Source of the DNA: a virus
DNA: 64,000 bases
Reading direction: 5' to 3' (one strand)
IMG/VR virus record: IMGVR_UViG_3300042549_009011
Location: 1-64,000 of that record
Made by a program: the position numbers and the translations under genes. Below are positions 4,336 through 23,485 of the stretch, piece after piece. The notes under the pieces are model-generated. The model did no database searches and had not been told where the DNA came from. It worked only from the letters and a program-made list of their open reading frames with translations. Position 1 is the stretch's first letter, and every line of letters starts with the position of its first letter.

Positions 4336-5014
4336 ATGATCAAATTCATTGAAGGTAAAAAAGAAGAAAGCGAAATCCTTACATTTGAAGATGTAGGCGA
4401 AGATCAATTTTTCGTCGATGCAGTAGGCAACCTTTGTCAAAAAATAGATGATTTTAACTATGTTACTATCGCCGATGTAGATGGTCATCCATTTTGTACC
4501 CACGAACTAGGCGAACCAGAGGATGAAATTAATCGAATCATTGAAAATGTCAGTAAGATTGAGTTTTAATCAATAAAAAATCATTATAATGAAAAACCGT
4601 CAAAAATGGCTCGCTGAAAAAATCAAAGGCGAATATATCGAAAATGAAGACTTAATTCGTATCGTTATGTTTGAGACCTTCTTGTATTACATTAAAGAAG
4701 AGCTGTCTGTAATGGCGATTTTTAGAGATAAAAAAGCAAAAAAAATAACTGTTGATGAATTCTTTGATTATGATTGGAAAAAGGATCTCGAAAATGGTTA
4801 CGCAACAAAAGAGCAAGTCAAAAGCTATATCAGCCGCCAAAAAGAATTAAAGAAAGCATATTATTATGTCACAGAAGAAAGAGAAATCTTAAACAAAGAA
4901 TTCTATAGAACGATGCAATTGGACGAAGCCGAATCACTTGAAAAAGAAATAGAACAAAAAGACCAAAGAACCCTTGGAATCATTCTAAAGCATCGTTTAA
5001 CTCTATGGACTTAA
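4336..5014 (+). CDS. Two hypothetical proteins (4336-4569 acidic; 4589-5014)
   Basis: ORF track; co-directional with neighbours. Confidence 0.65.
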
Positions 5015-5098
5015 AATAAAGTGTAAGCCATAATATGGCTAGTTTTTTAGGATTTATATTTGTTGTGTTTGTTTTTATGCTTTTGGGCGCGATAATGC

Positions 5099-5737
5099 TT
5101 GAACAATATGACGAAGATGATTAAAACATACAGAGCAATCAGACATGATATCGTTCGCACAAAACAAAAACAAAACTCTGACGAAGTTCATCACCCCGAT
5201 GAAAAGATAGATCAGATCAAAAGAGTTTTTGAGGCGGAAAACTATAGCGAGAATCAAGGATTAAAAATTCTTGAGTTATTTTCGGGGCAGGGCAATTTAA
5301 CCAAAGTCTATGAACAATATGGTTCTGTTGCTGCTTACGATAAAAAGCATTTAAAAACGGGCGATAGTTTTCTTGAGTATCATAGATTAATCGCAGACAA
5401 GAAAAAGTTCGATGTGATCGACCTTGATCCATACGGTTTTCCAAATAGATTCTTTCCAGATATTTTTCTTTTGATTGAAAAAGGGGTGATGTTTATCACA
5501 ATGCCAAAACCTTATGTCAACATTCTTAATGGAATAACACAAACACATTTGATTAGTTATTTCGACAAACACAATCCCAGCGAGGACGAGATAATCGAAA
5601 GAACTGTTTTGTTTGGGCTTTGCCATTGGAGAAAGTTGCAGTTGATTGATAAATTAGATTGCAAAAGTGTTTGGAGGTTTGCTTTTAGCGTGGAGAAGGT
5701 TAAGGCGACAGAGTATACGGGAGTCAAAAATAGATAA
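5099..5737 (+). CDS. Class I SAM-dependent methyltransferase-like protein
   Basis: ILELFSGQG motif I and FDVIDLDPYG (DPY/DPF-type) motif. Confidence 0.7.
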   Translation: MNNMTKMIKTYRAIRHDIVRTKQKQNSDEVHHPDEKIDQIKRVFEAENYSENQGLKILELFSGQGNLTKVYEQYGSVAAYDKKHLKTGDSFLEYHRLIADKKKFDVIDLDPYGFPNRFFPDIFLLIEKGVMFITMPKPYVNILNGITQTHLISYFDKHNPSEDEIIERTVLFGLCHWRKLQLIDKLDCKSVWRFAFSVEKVKATEYTGVKNR

Positions 5738-5779
5738 AATAGTTGTTGACATTATTAGAATAAAGTATAGAAAAAAGTC

Positions 5780-6837
5780 ATGAACGAATCAGACACGCCG
5801 AGAACCGACCTGCAATTCCCCGTCTTAATTCAGGACGGCGTTGAATATGTCGAATTGTCATTTGCAGAAGGTATCGAGAAAGAACTAACCGCCGCCCGTC
5901 AGGAGATTGATATTCTCAAAAGTAAATACGCAGACCATCATGCAGAAGCCGAAAGACTCACATCTGAAATTAGATCAATCACCGAGCAGCGGGACGAGTT
6001 ACTTCGATACAATGAGGCATTCCGCAAGGAGACGTTGATCTGTGCCGATTGTGACGCGATCAGAAAAGAGGAATACGACCAAGCTATTGAGCAGCGCGAC
6101 AGGCTGGCGGAAGCTGTTATTCGATTCAGCCAAGGTACATGCAGTATCCATTTCATTTTGGATTTAGCTGTAGCTGCCATAAAAGGCAACACCAATGATT
6201 AGATTATGTCCTATAGATCAAACTGTACTTGACCTACGCAACAAATTTTAAACAATAAAAAAATGATTGAAAACATCTCAGCAGAAGAAATCAAAACAAA
6301 ATACCGCCAAAATCATGGATTCGCATTTATTTCGGCGCAAAGAGTTTCTGATGAAGCTGCGTATCGACTAGCAGATACATTGATTAAAGCAAATATAACT
6401 TCCAAGCAGCCGCTGGTTATCACTAGATACGAACAATCTGTTATTTTCATCTATGATGATTTCGAGGGTCCAACATTTTTCGCTAAGGCTCAGTTCTTTG
6501 AGCAAACTTTTGGTATCGCAAGAGTAGTTCCCTTTATGCAATACGTAAATAGTTTTAGTAATCACAAAGGCTGATAATATTTGGAGATTTTTGTTGACAA
6601 ATTAGTTGATTTAGCTAGAGTTCGCGCATGGACAACTCAGAAGATGAAAACGAGCCGACACCATTTCGACAATGGGAACTATCTGCTGGCAATTTAGCTT
6701 TTCGCGGTTTTAATAATGGTTATTTGGGGGAGAATGGGGAATATAAATTACAATTCTTACATGAGGGAATTAGTTATTCGATAGAAATAAAGGCTAATCC
6801 TAGCAATATAATACAGTTTCCTAAAAAAACAAAATAA
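5780..6837 (+). CDS. Three hypothetical proteins (5780-6202 TPRTD/coiled-coil; 6263-6574; 6628-6837)
   Basis: ORF track; 5780 and 6628 each have an upstream TTGACA promoter. Confidence 0.65.
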
Positions 6838-6841
6838 AGCT

Positions 6842-7210
6842 ATGAATACACCAACCAACTCCAAGGCGTTGCCTCTCACGAATTGTTCGGCTTCTTGGTG
6901 CTGCCCCACCTGCGGGATAACGCAACCAATACCAACACGCCACCCACTAGGGACTCTCGTGAAACACACCAAGCACGGCAAAGGGGAAATCTTCTCCTAC
7001 GATCAATGCGACGACGTTTCATGTGGAGTGGACTTTGGGCGCAAGGGGCAATGGTGCATCGCCATGCGCGAGTTAATTATTCTGCCGAACGTCAAAGCGC
7101 ACTCACCCCAGCCCGACAACGAGACTGTAAGCGAAACAAGGGCTGCAAATCATCCCCAATCTTCGATTCCCAGCGGGGCTGGGGTTGATGTGGCGCAGCT
7201 TGTTCGTTGA
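6842..7210 (+). CDS. Cassette-associated hypothetical protein (CxxC plus SH3-like stretch) that reads through attC
   Basis: ORF starts in a residual attC half and ends at R' of attC1; GC is higher than in flanks. Confidence 0.55.
   Translation: MNTPTNSKALPLTNCSASWCCPTCGITQPIPTRHPLGTLVKHTKHGKGEIFSYDQCDDVSCGVDFGRKGQWCIAMRELIILPNVKAHSPQPDNETVSETRAANHPQSSIPSGAGVDVAQLVR
7084..7208 (+). repeat. attC-like site 1 (125 bp)
   Basis: GCCGAAC-GTCAA-AGCGCAC TCACCCCAGCCC ... GGGCTGGGGTTGA T GTGGCGCA-GCTT-GTTCGTT. Confidence 0.75.
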
Positions 7211-7213
7211 TCT

Positions 7214-7648
7214 TCATTTTGTTAGGAATTCGTATAACAATTCGCCCCACTTACCAACAAAAGACTCAAAGAATGCAGTCGCAATAAGAATAAAACACAC
7301 AATAAGTAATGTCTTCAATCTATCAATTCGATCTATCCAATACTCGGAAAGAAACCTATAATAAAACGGAATGTCTGCAAATTCTCGAAGTTCTTTTATA
7401 CCTGCGAGATCAAAAAGATACTTTTGGAAATCGACTTCTCCAATTCTTATCTTGTTGTCTCCGTCTTGTCGTAAAAAACCCTTCTTCTCAAAAGCTTGAA
7501 ATACCGATTCCGCCTCGCCAATGGATAGTCGGAATGATTGAGCTTCTGGGTGCTGTAGAAGGAGAGGACTTGTCCAATATGCTTCATAACTCCGATGCTT
7601 ATAGAAAAATTTGGCAATCAGTCTCAGGTCTTTCTCTTCTAACGCCAT
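7214..7648 (-). CDS. Cassette-borne hypothetical protein with C-terminal TM helix, inverted relative to neighbours
   Basis: 144 aa; fits exactly between the two attC sites. Confidence 0.65.
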   Translation of the reverse strand: MALEEKDLRLIAKFFYKHRSYEAYWTSPLLLQHPEAQSFRLSIGEAESVFQAFEKKGFLRQDGDNKIRIGEVDFQKYLFDLAGIKELREFADIPFYYRFLSEYWIDRIDRLKTLLIVCFILIATAFFESFVGKWGELLYEFLTK

Positions 7649-7691
7649 ATTCAGGTAAGGCTTGGTGTTGGTGGGATTTCTTTAGTTTTTT

Positions 7692-7745
7692 AACGAACAC
7701 CAAAGATCAGGAGCGCATAGCGTCTTCTGTATCTGACTGTTCTTA
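7692..7745 (+). repeat. attC-like site 2 (54 bp)
   Basis: AACGAAC-ACCAA-AGATCAG ... CTGTATCT-GACT-GTTCTTA. Confidence 0.7.
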
Positions 7746-7783
7746 AATCTAACCGACATAAATCTAACTAACCCGAACGAACA

Positions 7784-8970
7784 ATGAACACAGACGAACA
7801 AAGAGTCGCCATTGCGAAACTTCTTGGCTGGAAATCAATACGGCAAGATAACAACCAACCCGAACGAACTATGAACAAAGAACAACAAAGAATCGCCATC
7901 GCGGAAGCTTGTGGGTGGCTGATAGGTAAGGTTGGCAACAATGTCTCAAATCCCAAAGGAGATGAAAGACCATGGAAAGACATCCCCGACTACCTCAACG
8001 ACCTAAATGCGATGCACGAAGCAAAACTAAGCCTATCTCCAGAAGAACTTGGAACATATACGTGTGTCCTCATTCAAATGGGGGTAGACTACGGTTTTAA
8101 TTTTATGGTGTCAACAGCAGAACAACAAGCTGAAGCCTTTCTAGTAACACTTAAATTACTTAAACTTGGGCAGCAGCTCAAATCCAACCAACAAAACACG
8201 AACGAACCATGAAAACACCGACACCAAGAACAGACGCACAACGGGGACTCTATGATAACATCAGGGCAGCCGCTTAAAGTTGTTGCCGAGCGACTACAAA
8301 TTACAATGTCGTCGTTCAGCAACAAAAAATTAAAACACACACAAAATAATATGAGTTTGCCTACGCAAAAAAGTTTGTCACAAGAAATGGTGGACATTAG
8401 AGATATGTATTATGGTCTATTGGAAGATCACGAAAACCTTGTTAAGCAGCGCGACAGGCTGGCAGAGGCTTTGGAAATAGACCCATATCCAGACGAACCA
8501 ATCTCAGATGATTTACACGGCGGGAACGTATATTGCGAAATCTCTGTTGGCGAAATGAGAAAGATTCGCGAAGCCCTCCAATCCCTAACCCCTAAAGACA
8601 AATGAATTATTTTGAACCAAAACTCGCGGAAGCTTATGAACATATCGTAAAGGCTCAGAAGATTATGACTGAGCTTGGACATGCAAAGTATACTCTTTGT
8701 GGCATGGTAAGCATACAAATGCTGCACGATTCGGAGCAAGAAGTTTCTGTATTACTTGGAAAGCTTAATAAATCTATGAAACAGCGTGATATTTTATCTA
8801 ATATACTCAAAGAAATCTTACCGCTCGTTCCTACCGCATTTTGTGACATGTTCCATCACTCCAAAAAAGATAGACACGATTATGGAGATGAATGCAAACC
8901 CTTGACTAGATACAATGATGTAATCAAAAAAGCAGAAGAAGGGTTGATGATTGTAAAAGCAGAGAAATGA
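7784..8970 (+). CDS. Hypothetical phage proteins (7784/7871-8212; ~8351-8605; 8602-8970)
   Basis: ORF track. The first carries the common phage IAEACGW...PDYLNDLNAMHEA pattern. Confidence 0.6.
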
Positions 8971-9182
8971 GAGTTTTTTTCGGGGCAAATAGTAATTTCA
9001 AATAATTCTGTAACGAAATGCGTCAAAACAAATGCTTTGTGAATTATAAACAAGCGTTTGATTAATATATTTTTATTGTTTAAAGAACATTTCGGGACAG
9101 ACGTTTGGACAAGTGAGACAGTGTGTCACAGCAGATCAAAAATAAACTTTTTATACGACAAAAACCCAGACGAAATCAAGCC

Positions 9183-10778
9183 AAATTACGAACGATGCGG
9201 AGCGAAATACGCAGAGATCGACTAACAGAACGGAAACCCGTAACCCCTTGAGTATCAAGGGTTTCTATCTCCTACCACTTCACCTTTTTACACTCTACAT
9301 ACAGGTAACATACAGTATAAACATAGAGAGAGTATAGAGCAAAGAAAGAGGATGATGAAGATAATGGAAAATGGGAAGATTTGGAAAAGTGGATTCGCAT
9401 AATTATAACTCTTTTTAAATGATTTTTTAATATCTTACGCAATTTTTTTATACTTTAGCCAGTTTTATCTTGACAATCCTTTATATTATGTTACCTTTAC
9501 CCCCATGAAGAAAACGTTATCTTTCCTATTCGTAGCACTCCCGTTGGGACTGCTTCTCAGTCTTATCCTCGCAGTTATTCTTGGTACTGTGACATTTTGT
9601 CGCAGCTTTGCTGACTATTGGTCGTACATCATCGTACAATTCTTCCCTATGTATGGTATGCGAGATCGTGTAGAGGAGGAACAAGAGCCGCAAGAGCCAC
9701 AAGAGCAGTCGTCCATATGGGAAAAGCATCAGGCTAAGATGGATGCAAAAAAACGAGAAGAACCAAAAGACTAAATTACGAACGATTTTTGCCCAAATAA
9801 ACAAAAACAAATTACGAATTATTTTCGGCTAAATAAACAATTAAATTAAGAACGAAAATGAGCCAAATAAACGAAGGAACAAATTACGAACAAAAGATCG
9901 CCAAATATAAAGCATTTATTAAGGAGTTGTCTGAAGTGCAGGAACTCTACTACCAAAAACTCGTAGAGGAAATCAACATCAGTGCAAAAGACGAAGAGTA
10001 TTTGTTTGATTACATATACAACGCAGACTTTACAACTTTCGGAGATTACCTAGCGCAGTTTAATAAACAATAAAATTACGAACGATTTTGCCCCAAATAA
10101 ACAAATGAAACCTTACTATTATATAGACAGCGCAAATGCTAACGTACGCAGAAACAAACACCACACTTTAGAATCTGCGGTTAAAGGTGCAGAGTTTATG
10201 GCGGAAAGTTACCCTGGAATTAGTTTTGAAGTGTTACAAGTTGTAGCTATAAGCTCTACGCCGAAACCCAATGCCACAACCTTCTACTTGGATCGCGCGA
10301 CGGAATAAAAATTACGAACGATTTTTTTCTAAATAATAATAACTTAAATTACGAACGATTTTTGCCGAAATAAACAACGCGCAAGTATGGATGGATTATA
10401 CGAAATGTACACGACGGAGAATGAGTTTGCGCGAATTGAACAGTGCATCCGCGAGGCAATTTCCAAAGCTATTAAAGCTGGAGTGAATCCTACTGAGATT
10501 TGGCTGGGAGAAGTTGAGATGGCGACATTTCGGAAACATATAAAATTACAGTTTATTAATCATCGTAAAGCGAGCGAACAAATCTCGGAAGAAAATTTTA
10601 AATACGCTGACATGGAAGTAAGAGAATCCAAATCACAAGGAATCCGTGTTGGCGTGAGTTGGGTATCAAATACCAAAGCGTAATTACGAACGATTTTCTC
10701 CTAAATAAACAATATAAAAATATGACTGATACAAAACCAAATAACGAAATTACGAACGATTCTGCCCTAAATAATAAA
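9183..10778 (+). repeat. Ten copies of a ~32-bp direct repeat AAATTACGAACGATTTTNNCCNAAATAAACAA
   Basis: Copies start at 9183, 9773, 9809, 9843, 9881, 10073, 10309, 10346, 10681 and 10747. Confidence 0.9.
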
Positions 10779-17352: not shown

Positions 17353-17579
17353 AATTTTGTGTTGGTTGGTTACAGGGAAAAGATAACATTTCCTGCGAGA
17401 TTGTCAATTTTTTTCGATTAAAAAATAAATTAAAAAAAGACTTGACAACATCCCGCAAAAAAAACATTTGACAATTTTTATCTGGCGGCGGGGCGCTGGC
17501 ATAAAAAACTGTTAGAAAACTGTTAGAGAATTGTGCAAAAAAAACCGCCCCACTTTCGCGGGGCGGCTTGGGTTAGCGA

Positions 17580-18401
17580 TCAGTCGCGGAGATCAACTTC
17601 ACCCTCTGGGGCGTTGTCCTCGCAACCTTTCGTTACGATTTCTTGAAGCTCAAGTTGTGGCACGTGATGAGCGAGCTTGTCGAAGATGCTCTGCATCGTC
17701 ATCGTGCGGAATGGCAACTTGGAAAGATCACCGCCCTTGAGGTTTTCAGTTACGGCGTTGTAGAGATTCCACAACGTGTTACCCACGAAGTCAACGTGGC
17801 GGGGATTTTCTGAACCCTCCATGTGACGGCGGAACTCCACGACATTTGTGTAAAGGTCACGGGCTGGGATTGCTTTCGAGTCAACCAATCTCACAAGCAG
17901 ATTCTCAGCTTGAGCGGAGGAAATGAAAGTTTCCTTGTAGCGTTCAATACGCAAGCCCATGTCGTTCCAATGAGCGACAACGCGAGCCACAGCATCAGCG
18001 ATCACGCGAGGGAGATCAGCCAAGATGTTGAGAGTGTGACGGCGTGAGAGCTTCACATCAGACGAGAAGCAAAGATTTTCGCAAACCATCATGCGATTGC
18101 CGATGCAGATTGCGGCGGCGAAAGCCTTGTCATGGGAATTGCGAAGACCCAAAACGACTTGGCGATCCGTGCCGTCGATACCCTTGCCAGTGAGAGCGAA
18201 GCCGCCGAAGTAGCGAAGACCGCCACGGGCAAGCGAGTGTTCTTCCTCAACGATGGTCAGACCGACCGCCTCGATAGCTTCACGGGTAAGCTTGACGAGA
18301 GTATGGTGAGGAATTGGCATATGAGAATCGGTTGCTTCTGGAGTTTCAACACCCAAGAGTTGCTCGAATTGAACTTTGTTTTTTGCGATGATAAGTGACA
18401 T
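17580..18401 (-). CDS. DUF932-family protein
   Basis: LGLRNSHDK...GNRMMVCENLCFS...RRHT and TLWNLYNAVTE motifs. Confidence 0.75.
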   Translation of the reverse strand: MSLIIAKNKVQFEQLLGVETPEATDSHMPIPHHTLVKLTREAIEAVGLTIVEEEHSLARGGLRYFGGFALTGKGIDGTDRQVVLGLRNSHDKAFAAAICIGNRMMVCENLCFSSDVKLSRRHTLNILADLPRVIADAVARVVAHWNDMGLRIERYKETFISSAQAENLLVRLVDSKAIPARDLYTNVVEFRRHMEGSENPRHVDFVGNTLWNLYNAVTENLKGGDLSKLPFRTMTMQSIFDKLAHHVPQLELQEIVTKGCEDNAPEGEVDLRD

Positions 18402-18871
18402 ATTGTTATTTTCTGTTTTTAGTGGTTAAGAGTGCCTTTCGTGGCGACAAGAGAAAGATAGCATATCGTGCGAGTTTGTCCACACATTTTTATTTGTTTT
18501 TGCATTTTTATTTTTGCGGGAAAGTGAAAAAAACGCTTGACAACCCCTGGAAAAAACCATCTAACAGATTTTTATGCGGCGGGGGGACGCTAGGATAAAA
18601 AAATTATTTCTCTTCTTTTATCTCTCTTTTGCCGTCTCGCCTCACACGTTTATTTTGTGGGCGTTTCCAATCGCGCAAGTGCTTCCACCATTGGACAGTC
18701 TTCACAGATCCTTTGCCTTTACCTGCCGAAGCCATCGCGACATTCCTTTCTGCTTGCCTCTTTCTTCTTGTCCTTGAAGCGGATCACACAGGGAGGCATT
18801 GCGTGACGCACTAGGTTTCTCATGTCAAGGCTATTCTTTGAAAGTTCTTTGGGGGTTTTCTTTTTCATTTT

Positions 18872-19201
18872 TTAAATTGCGTAAGTTGTTCGATAAGCGA
18901 TTCCCATTTCTTTACACACTTGCTTAAAGACTTTGCCGTGAAAGTCATTTCTACCATTGACTTTGAATGTTCCGCCCATGCGTGAGAATTGGATGCAATG
19001 AGCAATCTCATGCAAGAGAACATATTTAAAAATGGAAAAGTTGTTTAAAACTATTTTGTTTAACTCAACCTTTTTTTCCCAAGGGTTAGCAAAACCAAGA
19101 GTTCTTTTAACGTGAGGATTCCAGTAGAGAGTGTAGTCATGTAAGCCGTATTGTTTAAAGGTTAGATGGGCGTATTGTTCGACTTCTTGTGTGGTGAGCA
19201 T
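18872..19201 (-). CDS. SprT-like zinc metalloprotease
   Basis: VLLHEIAH plus downstream HGKVFK. Confidence 0.75.
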   Translation of the reverse strand: MLTTQEVEQYAHLTFKQYGLHDYTLYWNPHVKRTLGFANPWEKKVELNKIVLNNFSIFKYVLLHEIAHCIQFSRMGGTFKVNGRNDFHGKVFKQVCKEMGIAYRTTYAI

Positions 19202-19250
19202 GGCAAAAGTTTAACTGTTTTAGGGATTGTGTCAATTATTTTTATTCTCC

Positions 19251-21817
19251 TTAACCGACTTCTTCTAGCATCTCTGGATTAAGCCATACAAATTCATTTT
19301 CTAAATGAGAAAGAATTGGGTAAACTCCATATTCTTTTTTGCCCGTATCTGTCCAGATTTCTCTTTTTAGAGTTTCTTCAAGTTTCTTTTTTAGTTTTTT
19401 TAACTTGGTTTCTGTCATTAGATACGAAGAATATTGACTTTGGTATTCTGTAGTATGCTCTATCTTTAATCGAAATTTTTTCATAGCTGCAAAAGTTTAA
19501 CTGTTTATTCTTCTGTGTCAATAGAAAGTTCAGAAGTAAAAAAGATTTCTCCGTATGATGTAACAAAACGATAAGATCCGTCTTGTAGTTCTGTGAAATC
19601 TTCCTGATTGTATAACAGGCTTTTTCCGATTTCGCTCATGATAACATCGACAGCTACTTCGTCGAGGTCGTCACGGGGAATGTCAATGGTTATTTTCATG
19701 GTGCTGTGGGATTTAGATTATTTGTTTTCCTCCAAGAAGTCAACAAAAGATTCTGCAAGATCAAAGATTAGTTCTTGCACATACCAATAAGGATCTTCAT
19801 TGCCAGCGGCTCTTTGAATCGCGTCCCAAATCAAAACTTTGTCTTGTTCGGGATGGTTTTCTTCGATAATAACAAGCGAAAGCTTTTCAGCGTCCCAGCT
19901 TTGATCCCAGCTAGAAAGGAAGTGGGAGGCAGCACGAAGAATTGCTTTTGCGTGAATCGGATTGCTTGTGTCGAGGTGATCAGTCATGCAAGGAACTTAT
20001 CATTTGAGAGTGCGAACGTCAACATTTTTTATTGATTATATTATTAATTAAAACACTTGACAAGATTGTGCCGAAAGCATCTAACAGATTTTTATCTCGC
20101 GGCGGGGCGCTCGCATAAAAAATTGAGGGGGCAGCGCATACCACCGCGCCACCCCTAATTCACCATGCCACAGAAATTATACGTGGAAACCTTCTTCTTC
20201 TAACACTTCAGCAACAGCTTCTTGTGCGATGTTGTAGAGTTCTGAGACGAGGGCAGTATCACCCTCCTCCTCGATGTATTCTTCCATAGCATCGAGTGCG
20301 TACATGACGCAAGGAAGATCTGGGAGGTCTGACATGGAAAGCCCACACAGATCGTAACAGGCTTGATTCATAATGGTAATGCAGCGTTTGCGGATGTTCA
20401 TAGTGGTAATTCTTTTAGAGTTTTGCGGGGACAAGGATTGTAATTTGCGTTTCTTCTCCTTCATTGTCAATCAAAAAAAGATTTGAACCGCTAACTCTCA
20501 CCATTTTGTTTTCTCCCTCTTGGAATTTCGCGCAGTATTCTAAGCCCTCAATATCCCAGCCGAGATAAAGAAATTCGTTTTCATCTGATCCGTTTAAATC
20601 ATCCAGACATGGAAATGTCAGGGTGTCGTCAATGATAATTGCAGATGCGTCTTGAATGATAGCAAAGGCTTCTTGTAAAGGTATGTATTTCATAGTGGCG
20701 ATAGTTTAATGTTTTTGGGGCGAGTTGTCAACTATTTTTAATCAAATGGCGGCAAATACTTTTTTACCATTTAAAATAACTTCTTCCGCGCGAAAAATAT
20801 CTTGATTTTTGCACTGGAACTGATTGACCTCATACGGATTATATCGCACGGATTGAAACCATTTATTAGATTGTAAGCTCGAAACCAACTCACCCAAGAT
20901 GTAGGCGTGAACGTTCTTTCTTTTTTCTTTGATTACTCTCTGGCGACCAGCCTGAGATACCTTAAAGCTTGCGTTGCGAAGATAAGCATCTTCTAGATGG
21001 CAAACGACTTTCCACCTTCCATTCACTTTCGCTTGAACGGAAAGTTTTTTCTTGTGGAGGTTGAAATAGATTCTGACTTGTTGATTGAGTGGTATCATGG
21101 CAAGAGAAAATTACACTGTGAACGCCAATTTGTCAAATACTTTTTTGCTAATAAGCTGTAAACGAGCTGCAAATAAATAAGCTGCAAATAAGAAATCGCC
21201 AAATAACGCTTGACAGGGGTAAATTTTTATGGTGGGGCGGGTAGTTGGTATAAAAATCTTTTTTATTCAAAGGTGGGGCGCTGGCATAAAAATCTGTTAG
21301 AGCGTCCGAGGTGTTCGTGTCAAGTATTTTTTTGGAAAAGGTTAGCGGGGAGAGCCACCACAACTCTCCCCGCTTTCACCATGCATCAGATCACCACATC
21401 TGAAAACGTAACGCTTGAAAACTTTTTGTGAATTGCTCCACACTTGAACTCAACCACCTTTTCAGGTTGGAAAGAGAACCAGCCTTTGCGGTTGCGGTCA
21501 ACGGCAGACTTGTAGCCAGCGGCTTTCAAGCCTTGAGTAGCTGGGTGATTTGAATTTCCTTTGACAAGATAATCGTAGCGGTTTTTCGCATTGATTGTGC
21601 GGAGAGTTCCGTCTTTCTTCTCGAAAGTGATAGAGAAGAATTTGCCTTTGGTTTGTTCGATGAGTTGGTCGATGTTTTGTTGCATAGTTTTTTTGTTTTG
21701 TTTTTCTTTACGAGAGTGAATGTAGAGTGAAATGCCACGGGTGGCAAGATAAAAAATAGAGAAAAGTGCTGGAATTGAGGCGACGACGAGGATGGAGTGA
21801 ATTAAGTTTTCTTTCAT
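19251..21817 (-). CDS. Monocistronic small early ORFs (19251-19484, 19505-19699, 19718-19987, 20177-20401, 20415-20693, 20742-21098, 21386-21817)
   Basis: Most are preceded by their own TTGACA-N16/17-TAANNT promoter; 20742-21098 (YFNLHK...RKNVHA) and 21386 (FFSITFEKKDGTLR) carry motifs common in phage hypotheticals. Confidence 0.7.
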
Positions 21818-22277
21818 GGTGGAGATAGTTTAATGTTTCAAGCGGGGTTTGTCAACTACTTTTTTGCGTATGCTTGAATGCAAGCGAGGCAGTAGCAGGT
21901 TGCCCCGAAAGTCAAGAAGCAAGCAACATCAAACAATTCATTTTTCCCGCCATAGACAGCGAAAGCACAAAGGCTAAAGGTTGGAGAGATGGTGATGATT
22001 GCGGAAGCGATGATGATAAGTGCGTGTTTCATAGTGGCGTTATTTTAGTATTTTTTGAAGATTAGTCAAGAAGTTTTTATTTCGATTGATCTCTTTCAAA
22101 TTTATAGCCATCTTCTTTTAAGGCTTTTATTTTATTATTAAAATCTTTTTCATCTTCAAAACGATATTCTTGTGCTGGGCGATCACCCAAGGCATAAGTC
22201 CAGATCATTAGGGTGTTGCTATTAGTAAAAAACCAGTGTGTTGTTTTCATAGTGTTGATTGTGGTTAATTTTAAAGA

Positions 22278-22535
22278 TTAGTCAAGAATAAAAACACCAT
22301 TGCCCATCATTCCTTCTCTGGATTTTTTGGTTGCGGTTGAAAGGATGTTTCTTTTTAATTCTTTTCCCTCGTTAGTAGATGGCACGAAAGAAAGAGTTTG
22401 TTTTATTTTATTAAGCGTTGCGTCGTCGCTACTAATGGAGAAGCCATCAATTTTCTTAATGAGCTTTGCGGCTTCAAGAAATTTTGGGATTTCAAGCGGG
22501 GCTTCTGATTGGAGTTTTTTTAGTTTGGCGTTCAT
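22278..22535 (-). CDS. Hypothetical protein, paralog of 23486-23746
   Basis: KLQSEAPLEIPKFLEAAKLIKKIDG vs KLQEQAPQEIPKFLEAAALIKKFDG. Confidence 0.75.
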   Translation of the reverse strand: MNAKLKKLQSEAPLEIPKFLEAAKLIKKIDGFSISSDDATLNKIKQTLSFVPSTNEGKELKRNILSTATKKSREGMMGNGVFILD

Positions 22536-22582
22536 GGGTGGATTGTGGTTTGTTTTGGGGTGGTTGTAAAGAAGAAAGTGAT

Positions 22583-22655
22583 CTTGTTGAGTGAGATTCG
22601 AACTCACCTTTTAGGGGGTTTAGCCCTTTGTCTTGTCCCCCTAGACGATCAACAA
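22583..22655 (-). tRNA. tRNA-like cloverleaf with AAA at the anticodon position and no encoded CCA
   Basis: TTGTTGA-TC-GTCT(AGGGGGACA)AGAC-A-AAGGG(CTAAACC)CCCTA-AAAG-GTGAG(TTCGAAT)CTCAC-TCAACAA-G. Confidence 0.7.
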
Positions 22656-22972
22656 GTTTTAGAAATTGATGGCATGTCTGAGGGATTTTACCCCGCCGTT
22701 ATTCTCGACTCTCTTAGCCAGTTTCGAGCGACTTTTTCTACTAGGGCGTTCCCTCCCTCGCATGAATACAAGTTACCATTTTTTCAGAAAAGCGCAAGGA
22801 TTATTTTAATTATTTTTTTCTAATATTTCTCTTGACATGGTAGGCGGGAAAGCATCTAACAGTTTTTTATCTGGCGGCGGGGCGCTCGCATAAAAATTCC
22901 ACAGCGTGTCAAGTGTTTTTATTGATTATTTTTGCGCGAATGTTTGGGGCGGCTTTCGCCGCCCCTTGTCCA

Positions 22973-23122
22973 TCAAACAAAGTCCAATGTCCCCAAAGGC
23001 ACTTCATCCTCTCGCCCATCTTCAAAACGAATCAAGGCACGATTTCCAGCGGGAGTGTGGACGACTTCGAGAAGTTCAACTTCACAGTCACAATATTTGC
23101 AGATTTCTTTTTCTTCGATCAT
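22973..23122 (-). CDS. 49-aa acidic beta-rich mini-protein (not in ORF track), paralog of 26689-26838 and 27720-27872
   Basis: MIEEKEICKYCDCEVELLEVVHTPAGNRALIRFEDGREDEVPLGTLDFV; own promoter and a downstream GGGGCGGC/GCCGCCCC hairpin. Confidence 0.7.
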   Translation of the reverse strand: MIEEKEICKYCDCEVELLEVVHTPAGNRALIRFEDGREDEVPLGTLDFV

Positions 23123-23485
23123 GGCAGGGAAAGGATAAGAGTTTTTCGCGGATCAGTCAAGAAAGAATTGCTTTTTCCAGACTGCATCTTGAACTTTTTT
23201 GTCAAGCCAAGACTGCTGTTCAAAGATTCTTGCGGTGAAGATGGATTGTTTTCTGGCGAATAGTTTTTTAAGTAGTTTCATAGCGGCGAAAGTGTAGGAT
23301 TTTCGGGGCGAGTTGTCAACTATTTTCTGTTTCTCACAGAATCAACTGTTCCATCAGCATATACTCTTACTGTATAAGCACTCGCTTTTGTTACATACAT
23401 ATGCCCAAAGGTAGTTTGTATTTTGTAGCAGCGGCTTAAATTAAACCATGCTTTGAGGTGAATCAAAATTATTTCTTTCATATTT

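Follow-up and report, generated by a model that had tools for sequence, protein, structure and literature searches.

Hairpin sites and gene cassettes in a lake phage genome

The window analyzed here comprises the first 64 kb of the IMG/VR virus record IMGVR_UViG_3300042549_009011, whose whole sequence (147,748 bp, CheckV-complete) is the genome of an uncultured lake phage of 148 kb with a guanine-plus-cytosine (GC) content of 35%. A block of 915 bp (~6831–7745) within it contains two complete attC sites and one truncated attC site, the sites that accompany integron gene cassettes, together with two small open reading frames, ORF1 and ORF2 (Table 1). The block includes a GC island (55–57% at 6900–7199, vs. 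~35% around it). Phage genes adjoin it on both sides, phage DNA lies directly beyond 7745, the right end is 38 nt ahead of a backbone gene, and there is no attI in the window. Contigs from other lake-water runs span both outer junctions and attC1 with zero differences; the arrangement is therefore real and not an assembly chimera. A blastn search of 5000–10000 against the phage collection returned no match, and an Rfam scan of 6000–9000 gave only two matches, both at chance level. The initial annotation of this region, made from the window sequence, had described gene cassettes with integron-type attC sites in a phage without an integrase. That core reading is supported, and the proposed search for intI elsewhere found no match to PF00589 or TIGR02249, i.e., no tyrosine recombinase, in the complete genome. 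With two complete sites and one truncated site in such a short stretch and no intI nearby, the block has the makeup of an attC cluster (at least two sites close together, without intI) and lacks the intI gene and attI that adjoin the array in a complete integron.

The outer boxes of attC sites follow the consensus R'' RYYYAAC and R' GTTRRRY, and the folded bottom strand of a canonical site has a central spacer that stays unpaired and, at fixed intervals in the R''–L'' arm, extrahelical bases, which set the strand choice. Read on the minus strand, attC1 begins with R'' AACGAAC (7208 to 7202) and spacer AAGCT, continues through an L'' arm with three extra bases and a long loop, and ends with the L' arm, spacer TTTGAC and R' GTTCGGC (7090 to 7084), placing the crossover between 7090 and 7089. 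The shorter attC2 has R'' TAAGAAC (7745 to 7739), spacer AGTCA, the arm GAT-[A]-CAGAAG-[A]-CGC and loop TAT, followed by the L' arm, spacer TTTGGT and R' GTTCGTT (7698 to 7692), with the crossover between 7698 and 7697. The attC0 remnant aligns with the right (plus-strand) part of a complete site at L081:7965–8050, with homology beginning in the loop at ~6831–6836. AAC and GTT are invariant across all sites of the family to which these belong (described below), the window boxes included, and the fourth base of the box is mostly C, likewise in bacterial members of the family. When the 5' arm of each site was aligned to the reverse complement of its 3' arm, attC1, attC2, 14 family sites, and the attCs of aadA7, TJE1, PH101, and Vibrio anguillarum shared one geometry: an R box, a 5–6 nt spacer, 3 bp, an extra base, 6 bp, another extra base and a GC-rich stem. 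The second extra base is nearly always T on the bottom strand, and attC1 carries one additional extra base. The window sites have both the unpaired spacer and the extrahelical bases of attC. An alignment-score attC finder, used first, was rejected as too strict because it missed known sites.

The attC top strand is the minus strand of the window, and the plus strand is the bottom strand. In experimentally validated attC sites (aadA7, TJE1, PH101, and P12002L), the top strand has the form RYYYAAC-AAnnn... and the bottom strand the form ...TTGTTRRRY (Qi et al. 2023, PMC9892861 Table S3), and the sites on the window plus strand end in ...GAATTGTTCGGC and ...CTTGTTCGTT. The extra bases sit in the 3' arm of the plus strand, which is the position of the extrahelical bases on a canonical attC bottom strand, and the canonical geometry emerges only when the plus strand is taken as the bottom strand. 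The opposite assignment was rejected by the unit boundaries, by the position of the extra bases and by the strand of the covariance-model matches given below. The hairpins at 7084–7208 and 7692–7745 and the half-site ending in GTTCGGC are all present where the initial annotation had placed them. Its R''/R' labels and the cassette limits drawn from them (6886–7202 and 7203–7739) were on the wrong strand: because the unit boundaries fall at GCCGAAC and AACGAAC, the crossovers lie in the boxes that had been labeled R'', and the cassettes run from 7697 to 7090 and from 7089 to ~6831.

Folded as DNA, 7084–7208 forms an imperfect hairpin of −24.3/−25.3 kcal/mol (z −1.8/−2.2) and 7692–7745 a hairpin of −9.8 kcal/mol (z −3.3/−2.8). 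The segment 6842–6891 is unfolded alone (z −0.3), as a half-site should be. Fold energy by itself is weak evidence for attC.

Table 1. Sites, cassettes, and open reading frames of the block, in window coordinates
Feature	Position	Strand	Length	Description
attC0 remnant	6831..6891	−		R'' GCCGAAC (6891 to 6885), spacer AATTC, L'' arm and partial loop; L' and R' missing
attC1	7084..7208	−	125 nt	Complete; covariance-model match, arm comparison, copies in other contexts
attC2	7692..7745	−	54 nt	Complete, short; geometry scan, arm comparison, fold
Cassette A	7090..7697	−	608 nt	TTCGTT, 5' leader, ORF2, attC1 ending in G at 7090; canonical layout
Cassette B	6831..7089	−		Starts with TT (7089, 7088) after the G of attC1 R'; ORF1 reversed; ends in truncated attC0
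ORF1	6842..7210	+	122 aa	On attC bottom strand; start codon in attC0 loop
ORF2	7214..7648	−	144 aa	Predicted winged-helix domain, then predicted long C-terminal hydrophobic helix

Pfam and PHROGs searches, in which the neighboring genes were included, gave no match for either cassette gene. ORF1 is a mosaic that begins and ends in attC sequence, as had been noted: the ATG (6842) falls within the truncated site's loop, and the stop codon (7208–7210) comes after attC1. Residues 1–82 match the small phage proteins P0001–P0004, which cover nothing beyond; residues 83–122 are a read-through of attC1, and this 40-residue tail is missing from P0001 and recurs nearly letter for letter at the ends of the unrelated proteins P0005 and P0006. 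AlphaFold2 modeled the core with a predicted local distance difference test (pLDDT) score >90 and the tail, predicted to be disordered, with a score <50. Residues ~25–82 are predicted to form a conserved Cys-containing small β-barrel resembling the C-terminal Tudor domain of UvrD/PcrA (template modeling score 0.72–0.80 on the target, a weak match at E ~1e-2). ORF2 has 15 homologues at 66–90% identity; its model (pLDDT 78.5) gave weak matches to MarR/PadR-like folds (E ~1e-3). Between ORF1 and its copy in L081, 20 of the 28 differences are at codon position 3, and ORF2 differs from the copy in bacterial locus L151 at 45/29/15 sites in codon positions 3/1/2. These substitution patterns indicate that both genes are under coding constraint in the frames given. 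The initial annotation had noted ORF2 as a minus-strand gene amid plus-strand genes; with the strands assigned as above, it is the canonical cassette gene and the antisense ORF1 is the unusual one.

Mobile units and the bacterial site family

Units consisting of a hairpin and a gene move between contexts. Window 7081–7705 is 99.7% identical to L083/L084 and window 7066–7481 is 97.9% identical to L085/L086, in both cases with different neighbors on both sides. Window 6833–7091 is 88.8% identical to L081:7991–8250, and the attC to its right differs between the two contexts. attC1 moves with ORF2 behind three different left-hand genes, its copies being 98–100% identical, and the body of ORF1 moves with the half-site on its left, the right-hand hairpin being a different one in L081. 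The breakpoints of the shared units are at GCCGAAC (7084–7090) and AACGAAC (7692–7698), i.e., at the outer boxes.

In cassette arrays, the R'' box of a cassette complements the R' box of the preceding cassette and not its own R', a rule that follows from the G/TT crossover (the slash marks the exchange point) in a circular intermediate. The two junctions in the window obey it, as the initial annotation had claimed (2/2): GTTCGGC (6885–6891) is the exact complement of GCCGAAC (7084–7090), each occurring once in the 147,748-bp genome, and GTTCGTT (7202–7208) is the exact complement of AACGAAC (7692–7698). Counted over seven loci (the window, L081, L083, L085, L151, L250, and L153), the boxes flanking an inter-site segment are exactly complementary at 21 of 24 junctions, with one mismatch at each of the other 3. 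The chained boxes use 15 different variable 4-mers, and the two boxes of a single site differ from one another at 2.35 positions on average. This pattern is the signature of cassettes passing through a circular form.

A covariance model of 129 positions, R1, was trained on six bacterial attC sites only, taken from integron-bearing Akkermansiaceae-like metagenome-assembled genomes (MAGs) and relatives; two of the six lie inside a complete integron. Applied to the window, R1 matched 7084–7208 on the minus strand over its full length (47.1 bits, E 2.4e-9). Further matches were 11 sites in L081 (six), L083, L085, and L137 with E ≤0.0034, plus four weaker ones, all on the predicted strand. In L083, the position of attC2 is taken by a different attC, which scores 63 bits with R1. 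Elsewhere in the phage genome, R1 gave one weak match only, at genome 116,439–116,551 (16.8 bits, E 0.096). This locus (L256:15440–15552) looks like a second attC-like site of the family in degenerate form, CCCGAAC AAGTC GAGGTAGAAC A ACCGCC..., and a minus-strand open reading frame starts inside it and reads through ...CGACTTGTTCGGG, in the manner of the loop-start genes of L081 described below.

A 16-mer from the end of attC1, searched in viral contigs, matched 24 loci, nearly all of them chance matches in GC-rich genes, and an 18-mer from the stem of attC1, searched in metagenomes, matched 32 loci, about the chance expectation, with L137 as the sole related site. Two GC-rich bacterial contigs (L141:2985–3095 and L147:1935–2025) contain an attC-like hairpin, ..CTTAAC TAAGAGGCGTTTGC...GCAAACGCCTCTTA GTTTAC, that has the exact 18-mer and its complement in common with the stem of attC1, by chance or common descent; in L147, its neighbors are an IS91-like gene and a fragment of a tyrosine recombinase.

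Ordinary regulatory or terminator inverted repeats with coincidentally complementary 7-mers would fit the modest fold z-scores, the lack of an Rfam match, the further occurrences of AACGAAC at 7776, 7863, and 8201, in translation-start regions, and the outcome of a strict scan for canonical attC geometry over the 64 kb. The scan gave a single match (7692–7745, minus strand), and shuffled windows average 1.5 matches, so it is not significant alone. This explanation can nevertheless be given almost no credence: R1 matched at E 2e-9 from an independent training set, units 98–99.7% identical and bounded at the boxes occur in unrelated contexts, chaining is exact at 21/24 junctions with 15 different 4-mers, and neither hairpin has a T-run after it. 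It is the covariance-model match, the near-identical units elsewhere and the chaining across loci that take the case beyond chance. The recurrence of AACGAAC downstream of 7745 is explained by a 68-nt direct repeat and not by attC boxes. This repeat (76% identical, at 7745–7812 and 7832–7899) contains AACCCGAACGAACnATGAAC, and through it the gene at 7784–8212 has two start regions in succession, whose N-terminal peptides, MNTDEQRVAIAKLLGW and MNKEQQRIAIAEACGW, are similar.

Homologues of the cassettes are also found on bacterial chromosomes. P0008, 74% identical to ORF2, is encoded on contigs of two bacterial MAGs. In L151, it is in sense orientation with an attC after it, within an array of five same-family sites that also carries a BrnT/CopG toxin-antitoxin cassette and is adjoined by chromosomal genes; its cassette starts with the same first bases as cassette A. 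SdhA encoded on a contig of the P0008-bearing MAG is 83–85% identical to that of Akkermansiaceae/Luteolibacter MAGs. Three of the five closest species representatives encode an IntI above the TIGR02249 cut-off (330–378 bits vs. a cut-off of 265). On contig G002:C39 (L250), intI precedes an attI-like region that ends in GTTCGGT, and beyond it lie sense-oriented cassettes, whose attCs end in ...TTTGAC GTTCGGC and ...TTTGAC GTTAGGT, like attC1. A scan of genome contigs with the ORF2 alignment found no relative among the species representatives. The window sites belong to the attC family of chromosomal integrons with a true IntI in freshwater Verrucomicrobia (Akkermansiaceae/Luteolibacter-like). 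As a separate observation, the integrase gene in L250 and in L248 (contig G001:C34) lies on the attC top strand of its array, an "inverted integrase" layout; in G001:C34, the orientation was read from the strand of the model matches. Three IntI genes of G001 exceed the family cut-off.

Gene orientation in phage arrays and the arrival of the block

Lying on the attC bottom strand, ORF1 has its start codon within the loop of the attC of its own cassette and continues across the R box. A second phage-borne array shows the same arrangement on a larger scale. The metagenomic phage contig L081 (encoding a portal, a ClpP-type protease and a tape measure protein) carries 10–11 chained attC sites at 5250–9250, between its head and tail genes. 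All called genes in its cassettes occupy the attC bottom strand, several have their start codons inside attC loops, and most genes running into the next site translate the R-box AAC in frame to Asn (..LPNA/V..). The strands of the L081 genes are gene-caller output, and the substitution pattern verifies the ORF1-type gene only; Pfam searches of the other L081 cassette genes gave nothing decisive. Bacterial arrays of the same site family have mostly sense-oriented genes, with one L151 cassette carrying minus-strand reading frames. It is conceivable, and we would put it slightly below an even chance, that lake phages keep a pool of "backwards" integron cassettes, which a host (Verrucomicrobia) IntI would shuffle among phages and between phage and chromosome. 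Each such cassette would have its gene on the bottom strand, a start in the loop and a fixed frame through the R box (..TCS.. and then ..LPN.. at successive boxes). If this tentative reading is true, its members would include ORF1, the L081 array, the relic at 116,439–116,551, and the phage MW202573; the arrays would run with phage transcription, and early phage genes would be exchanged between phages. No description of this backwards build of phage-borne vs. bacterial arrays was found in the literature searched.

The same orientation, with most phage-array genes (L081, ORF1) opposite to bacterial cassettes and starting inside the hairpin loop, could be taken with the absence of an integrase from the phage to mean that the hairpins belong to another cassette system, for instance one served by a Xer-like recombinase, and merely resemble attC. 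That is improbable, because sites of the same family, found with one model, directly adjoin a TIGR02249-class IntI in genomes of Akkermansiaceae and also occur in a chromosomal array whose cassettes are sense-oriented, and because the spacing of the extra bases is that of IntI substrates. The precomputed Pfam annotations of the gene-called loci contain no recombinase; no dedicated search for a Xer-like enzyme was made near the arrays.

Direct evidence of how such cassettes may enter phage DNA comes from L153, a phage-like contig (39% GC, small genes all on one strand) that shares one gene with the window phage. It carries a P0008 cassette, which likewise begins with the same bases as cassette A and is identical to the chromosomal copy at 568 of 575 positions, with exact boundaries (...GATGAG/TTAGCC... 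and ...TAGACG/TTTGTT...): a bare GTT upstream, and downstream a complete attC whose last six bases derive from the target. Judged by their sequence, these ends are what IntI leaves on inserting a cassette into a non-canonical GTT site, a type of cassette insertion documented experimentally at genomic sites (Loot et al., bioRxiv 10.1101/2022.09.11.507474).

The ends of the block in the window are of a different kind. Its left end (~6831) is within the attC0 loop and its right end (7745/7746) is the outer edge of attC2 R''; neither is G/TT, which favors capture of an array fragment over IntI insertion at this spot. We therefore consider, with a probability of roughly 0.85, that the block is a fragment of an integron cassette array, of the verrucomicrobial attC family, captured ready-made by an integrase-free phage. 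Of the two routes offered by the initial annotation, the captured piece of an array fits best. That a host IntI put the cassettes directly here, by recombining attC with a secondary GTT site, the present ends being the outcome of later deletion or rearrangement, is unlikely. In its favor, in L153 a homologous cassette was so inserted in a phage-like contig with exact G/TT ends, insertion at genomic GTT sites is experimentally documented (Loot et al., bioRxiv 10.1101/2022.09.11.507474), and the region is a plasticity zone in relatives. Against it, IntI insertion would give a bare G/TT upstream and a complete attC downstream, the opposite of the observed left end inside a loop and right end at the outer edge of a complete attC without its own cassette. 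A candidate upstream partner, TAAGAAC at 9847, would open a 2.1-kb cassette with attC2 at its end; it was rejected, since no hairpin is present there and the region belongs to the backbone that L253 also has.

Three related phage loci allow the site to be viewed without the block, as the initial annotation had suggested. In L251 and L252, the gene corresponding to that at 6263 is followed directly by a gene of the type found at 7784, and in L253 a different small gene follows the 6263 gene; the cassettes are absent from all three. These relatives are too diverged to supply an exact empty site for the window.

That lack of an exact empty site is one of several points that weigh against capture of an integron fragment. 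The predicted empty site of L153 was not found in viral contigs either. Recombination itself was not observed: no contig from four lake runs joins across a removed cassette A, a result that is uninformative because contigs drop rare variants. The degenerate box positions depart from the textbook consensus (GTTCGGC vs. GTTRRRY), and the geometry scan, as stated, does not exceed its shuffled control. R1 misses attC2, a 54-nt site being too short for a 129-position model, and it finds no Vibrio, TJE1, or MW202573 sites, so that it tests membership of the family and not attC character in general. Finally, the 35% GC of the phage is far from the 48–60% of the Akkermansiaceae contigs; an encounter of this phage with an IntI is thus hypothetical.

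In the proposed scheme, IntI would turn the units into mobile circles by acting on the bottom strand in its folded form (here the plus strand), with crossover at G/TT, and the block would have arrived as a ready-made fragment from another phage-borne or bacterial array. The recombination that brought it in would not have been site-specific at either end. Cassette A alone, flanked by two complete attC sites, should in principle still be excisable, and only by an IntI acting in trans. Cassette B is no longer excisable on its own because attC0 is cut off in its loop.

Two features of the wider genome were recorded in passing. A 5.7-kb segment at window 17577–23281 is duplicated at genome 141906–147652 with 96.5% identity, and the first 30 kb and the region of 112–147 kb are linked by several shorter paralogous segments.

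Comparison with known cassette systems

The window provides a further example of a phenomenon that has already been reported, small and partly decayed, and is not a new system. Clusters of attC sites without an integrase were described in virulent phages, and five of the sites recombine with IntI1 (Qi et al. 2023, PMC9892861). Like those clusters, the window has at least two attC sites with cassettes, no intI, canonical R/L boxes and extra bases. The freshwater phage MW202573 from that study is similar in further respects, its plus strand being the bottom strand and one of its sites ending in CGACTTGTTAGGT. The window differs in that it comes from an uncultured 148-kb lake phage, its sites are of the verrucomicrobial attC family, its array is truncated, and, of its two genes, one runs antisense to the attC of its cassette, with its start in the loop. 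In MW202573 (L150:2620–2800), the S-adenosylmethionine-dependent methyltransferase probably starts at a TTG (2686) inside attC, with AAGGAG upstream of it and the motif ILDACCGG downstream. This TTG precedes the annotated ATG (2794), which suggests that the deposited sequence lacks the true N-terminus of the protein.

The SALINs and attG insertions of Loot et al. (bioRxiv 10.1101/2022.09.11.507474) resemble L153, in which an ORF2-type cassette has a bare G/TT at one end and a complete attC at the other. They are unlike the window, whose block lacks such ends, and they differ from L153 in that its target is a phage-like genome and not a bacterial chromosome.

The most useful additions of this analysis are the link to the integrons of Akkermansiaceae and the insertion in L153. 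The findings show that cassettes from a chromosomal integron lineage outside the Proteobacteria, that of freshwater Verrucomicrobia, circulate in near-identical form among bacterial chromosomes, genomes of phage-like character, and this large phage of a lake. Phages are thus part of the natural pool of integron cassettes, as Qi et al. (2023) proposed from few cultured phages. Together with the G002:C39 integrase, attC1 and attC2 offer concrete material for a recombination test.

Sedentary chromosomal integrons, such as those of Vibrio and those in L151 and G002:C39, have lineage-specific attC families. The arrays in L151 and G002:C39 share with the window the same attC family and the same chaining of boxes, and have in addition a toxin-antitoxin cassette within the array or a TIGR02249-class IntI beside attI. 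The window differs from sedentary integrons in having no IntI, no attI, and only 2.5 sites. The bacterial arrays, unlike the window, contain mostly sense genes, and in G002:C39 and G001:C34 intI is co-oriented with the array.

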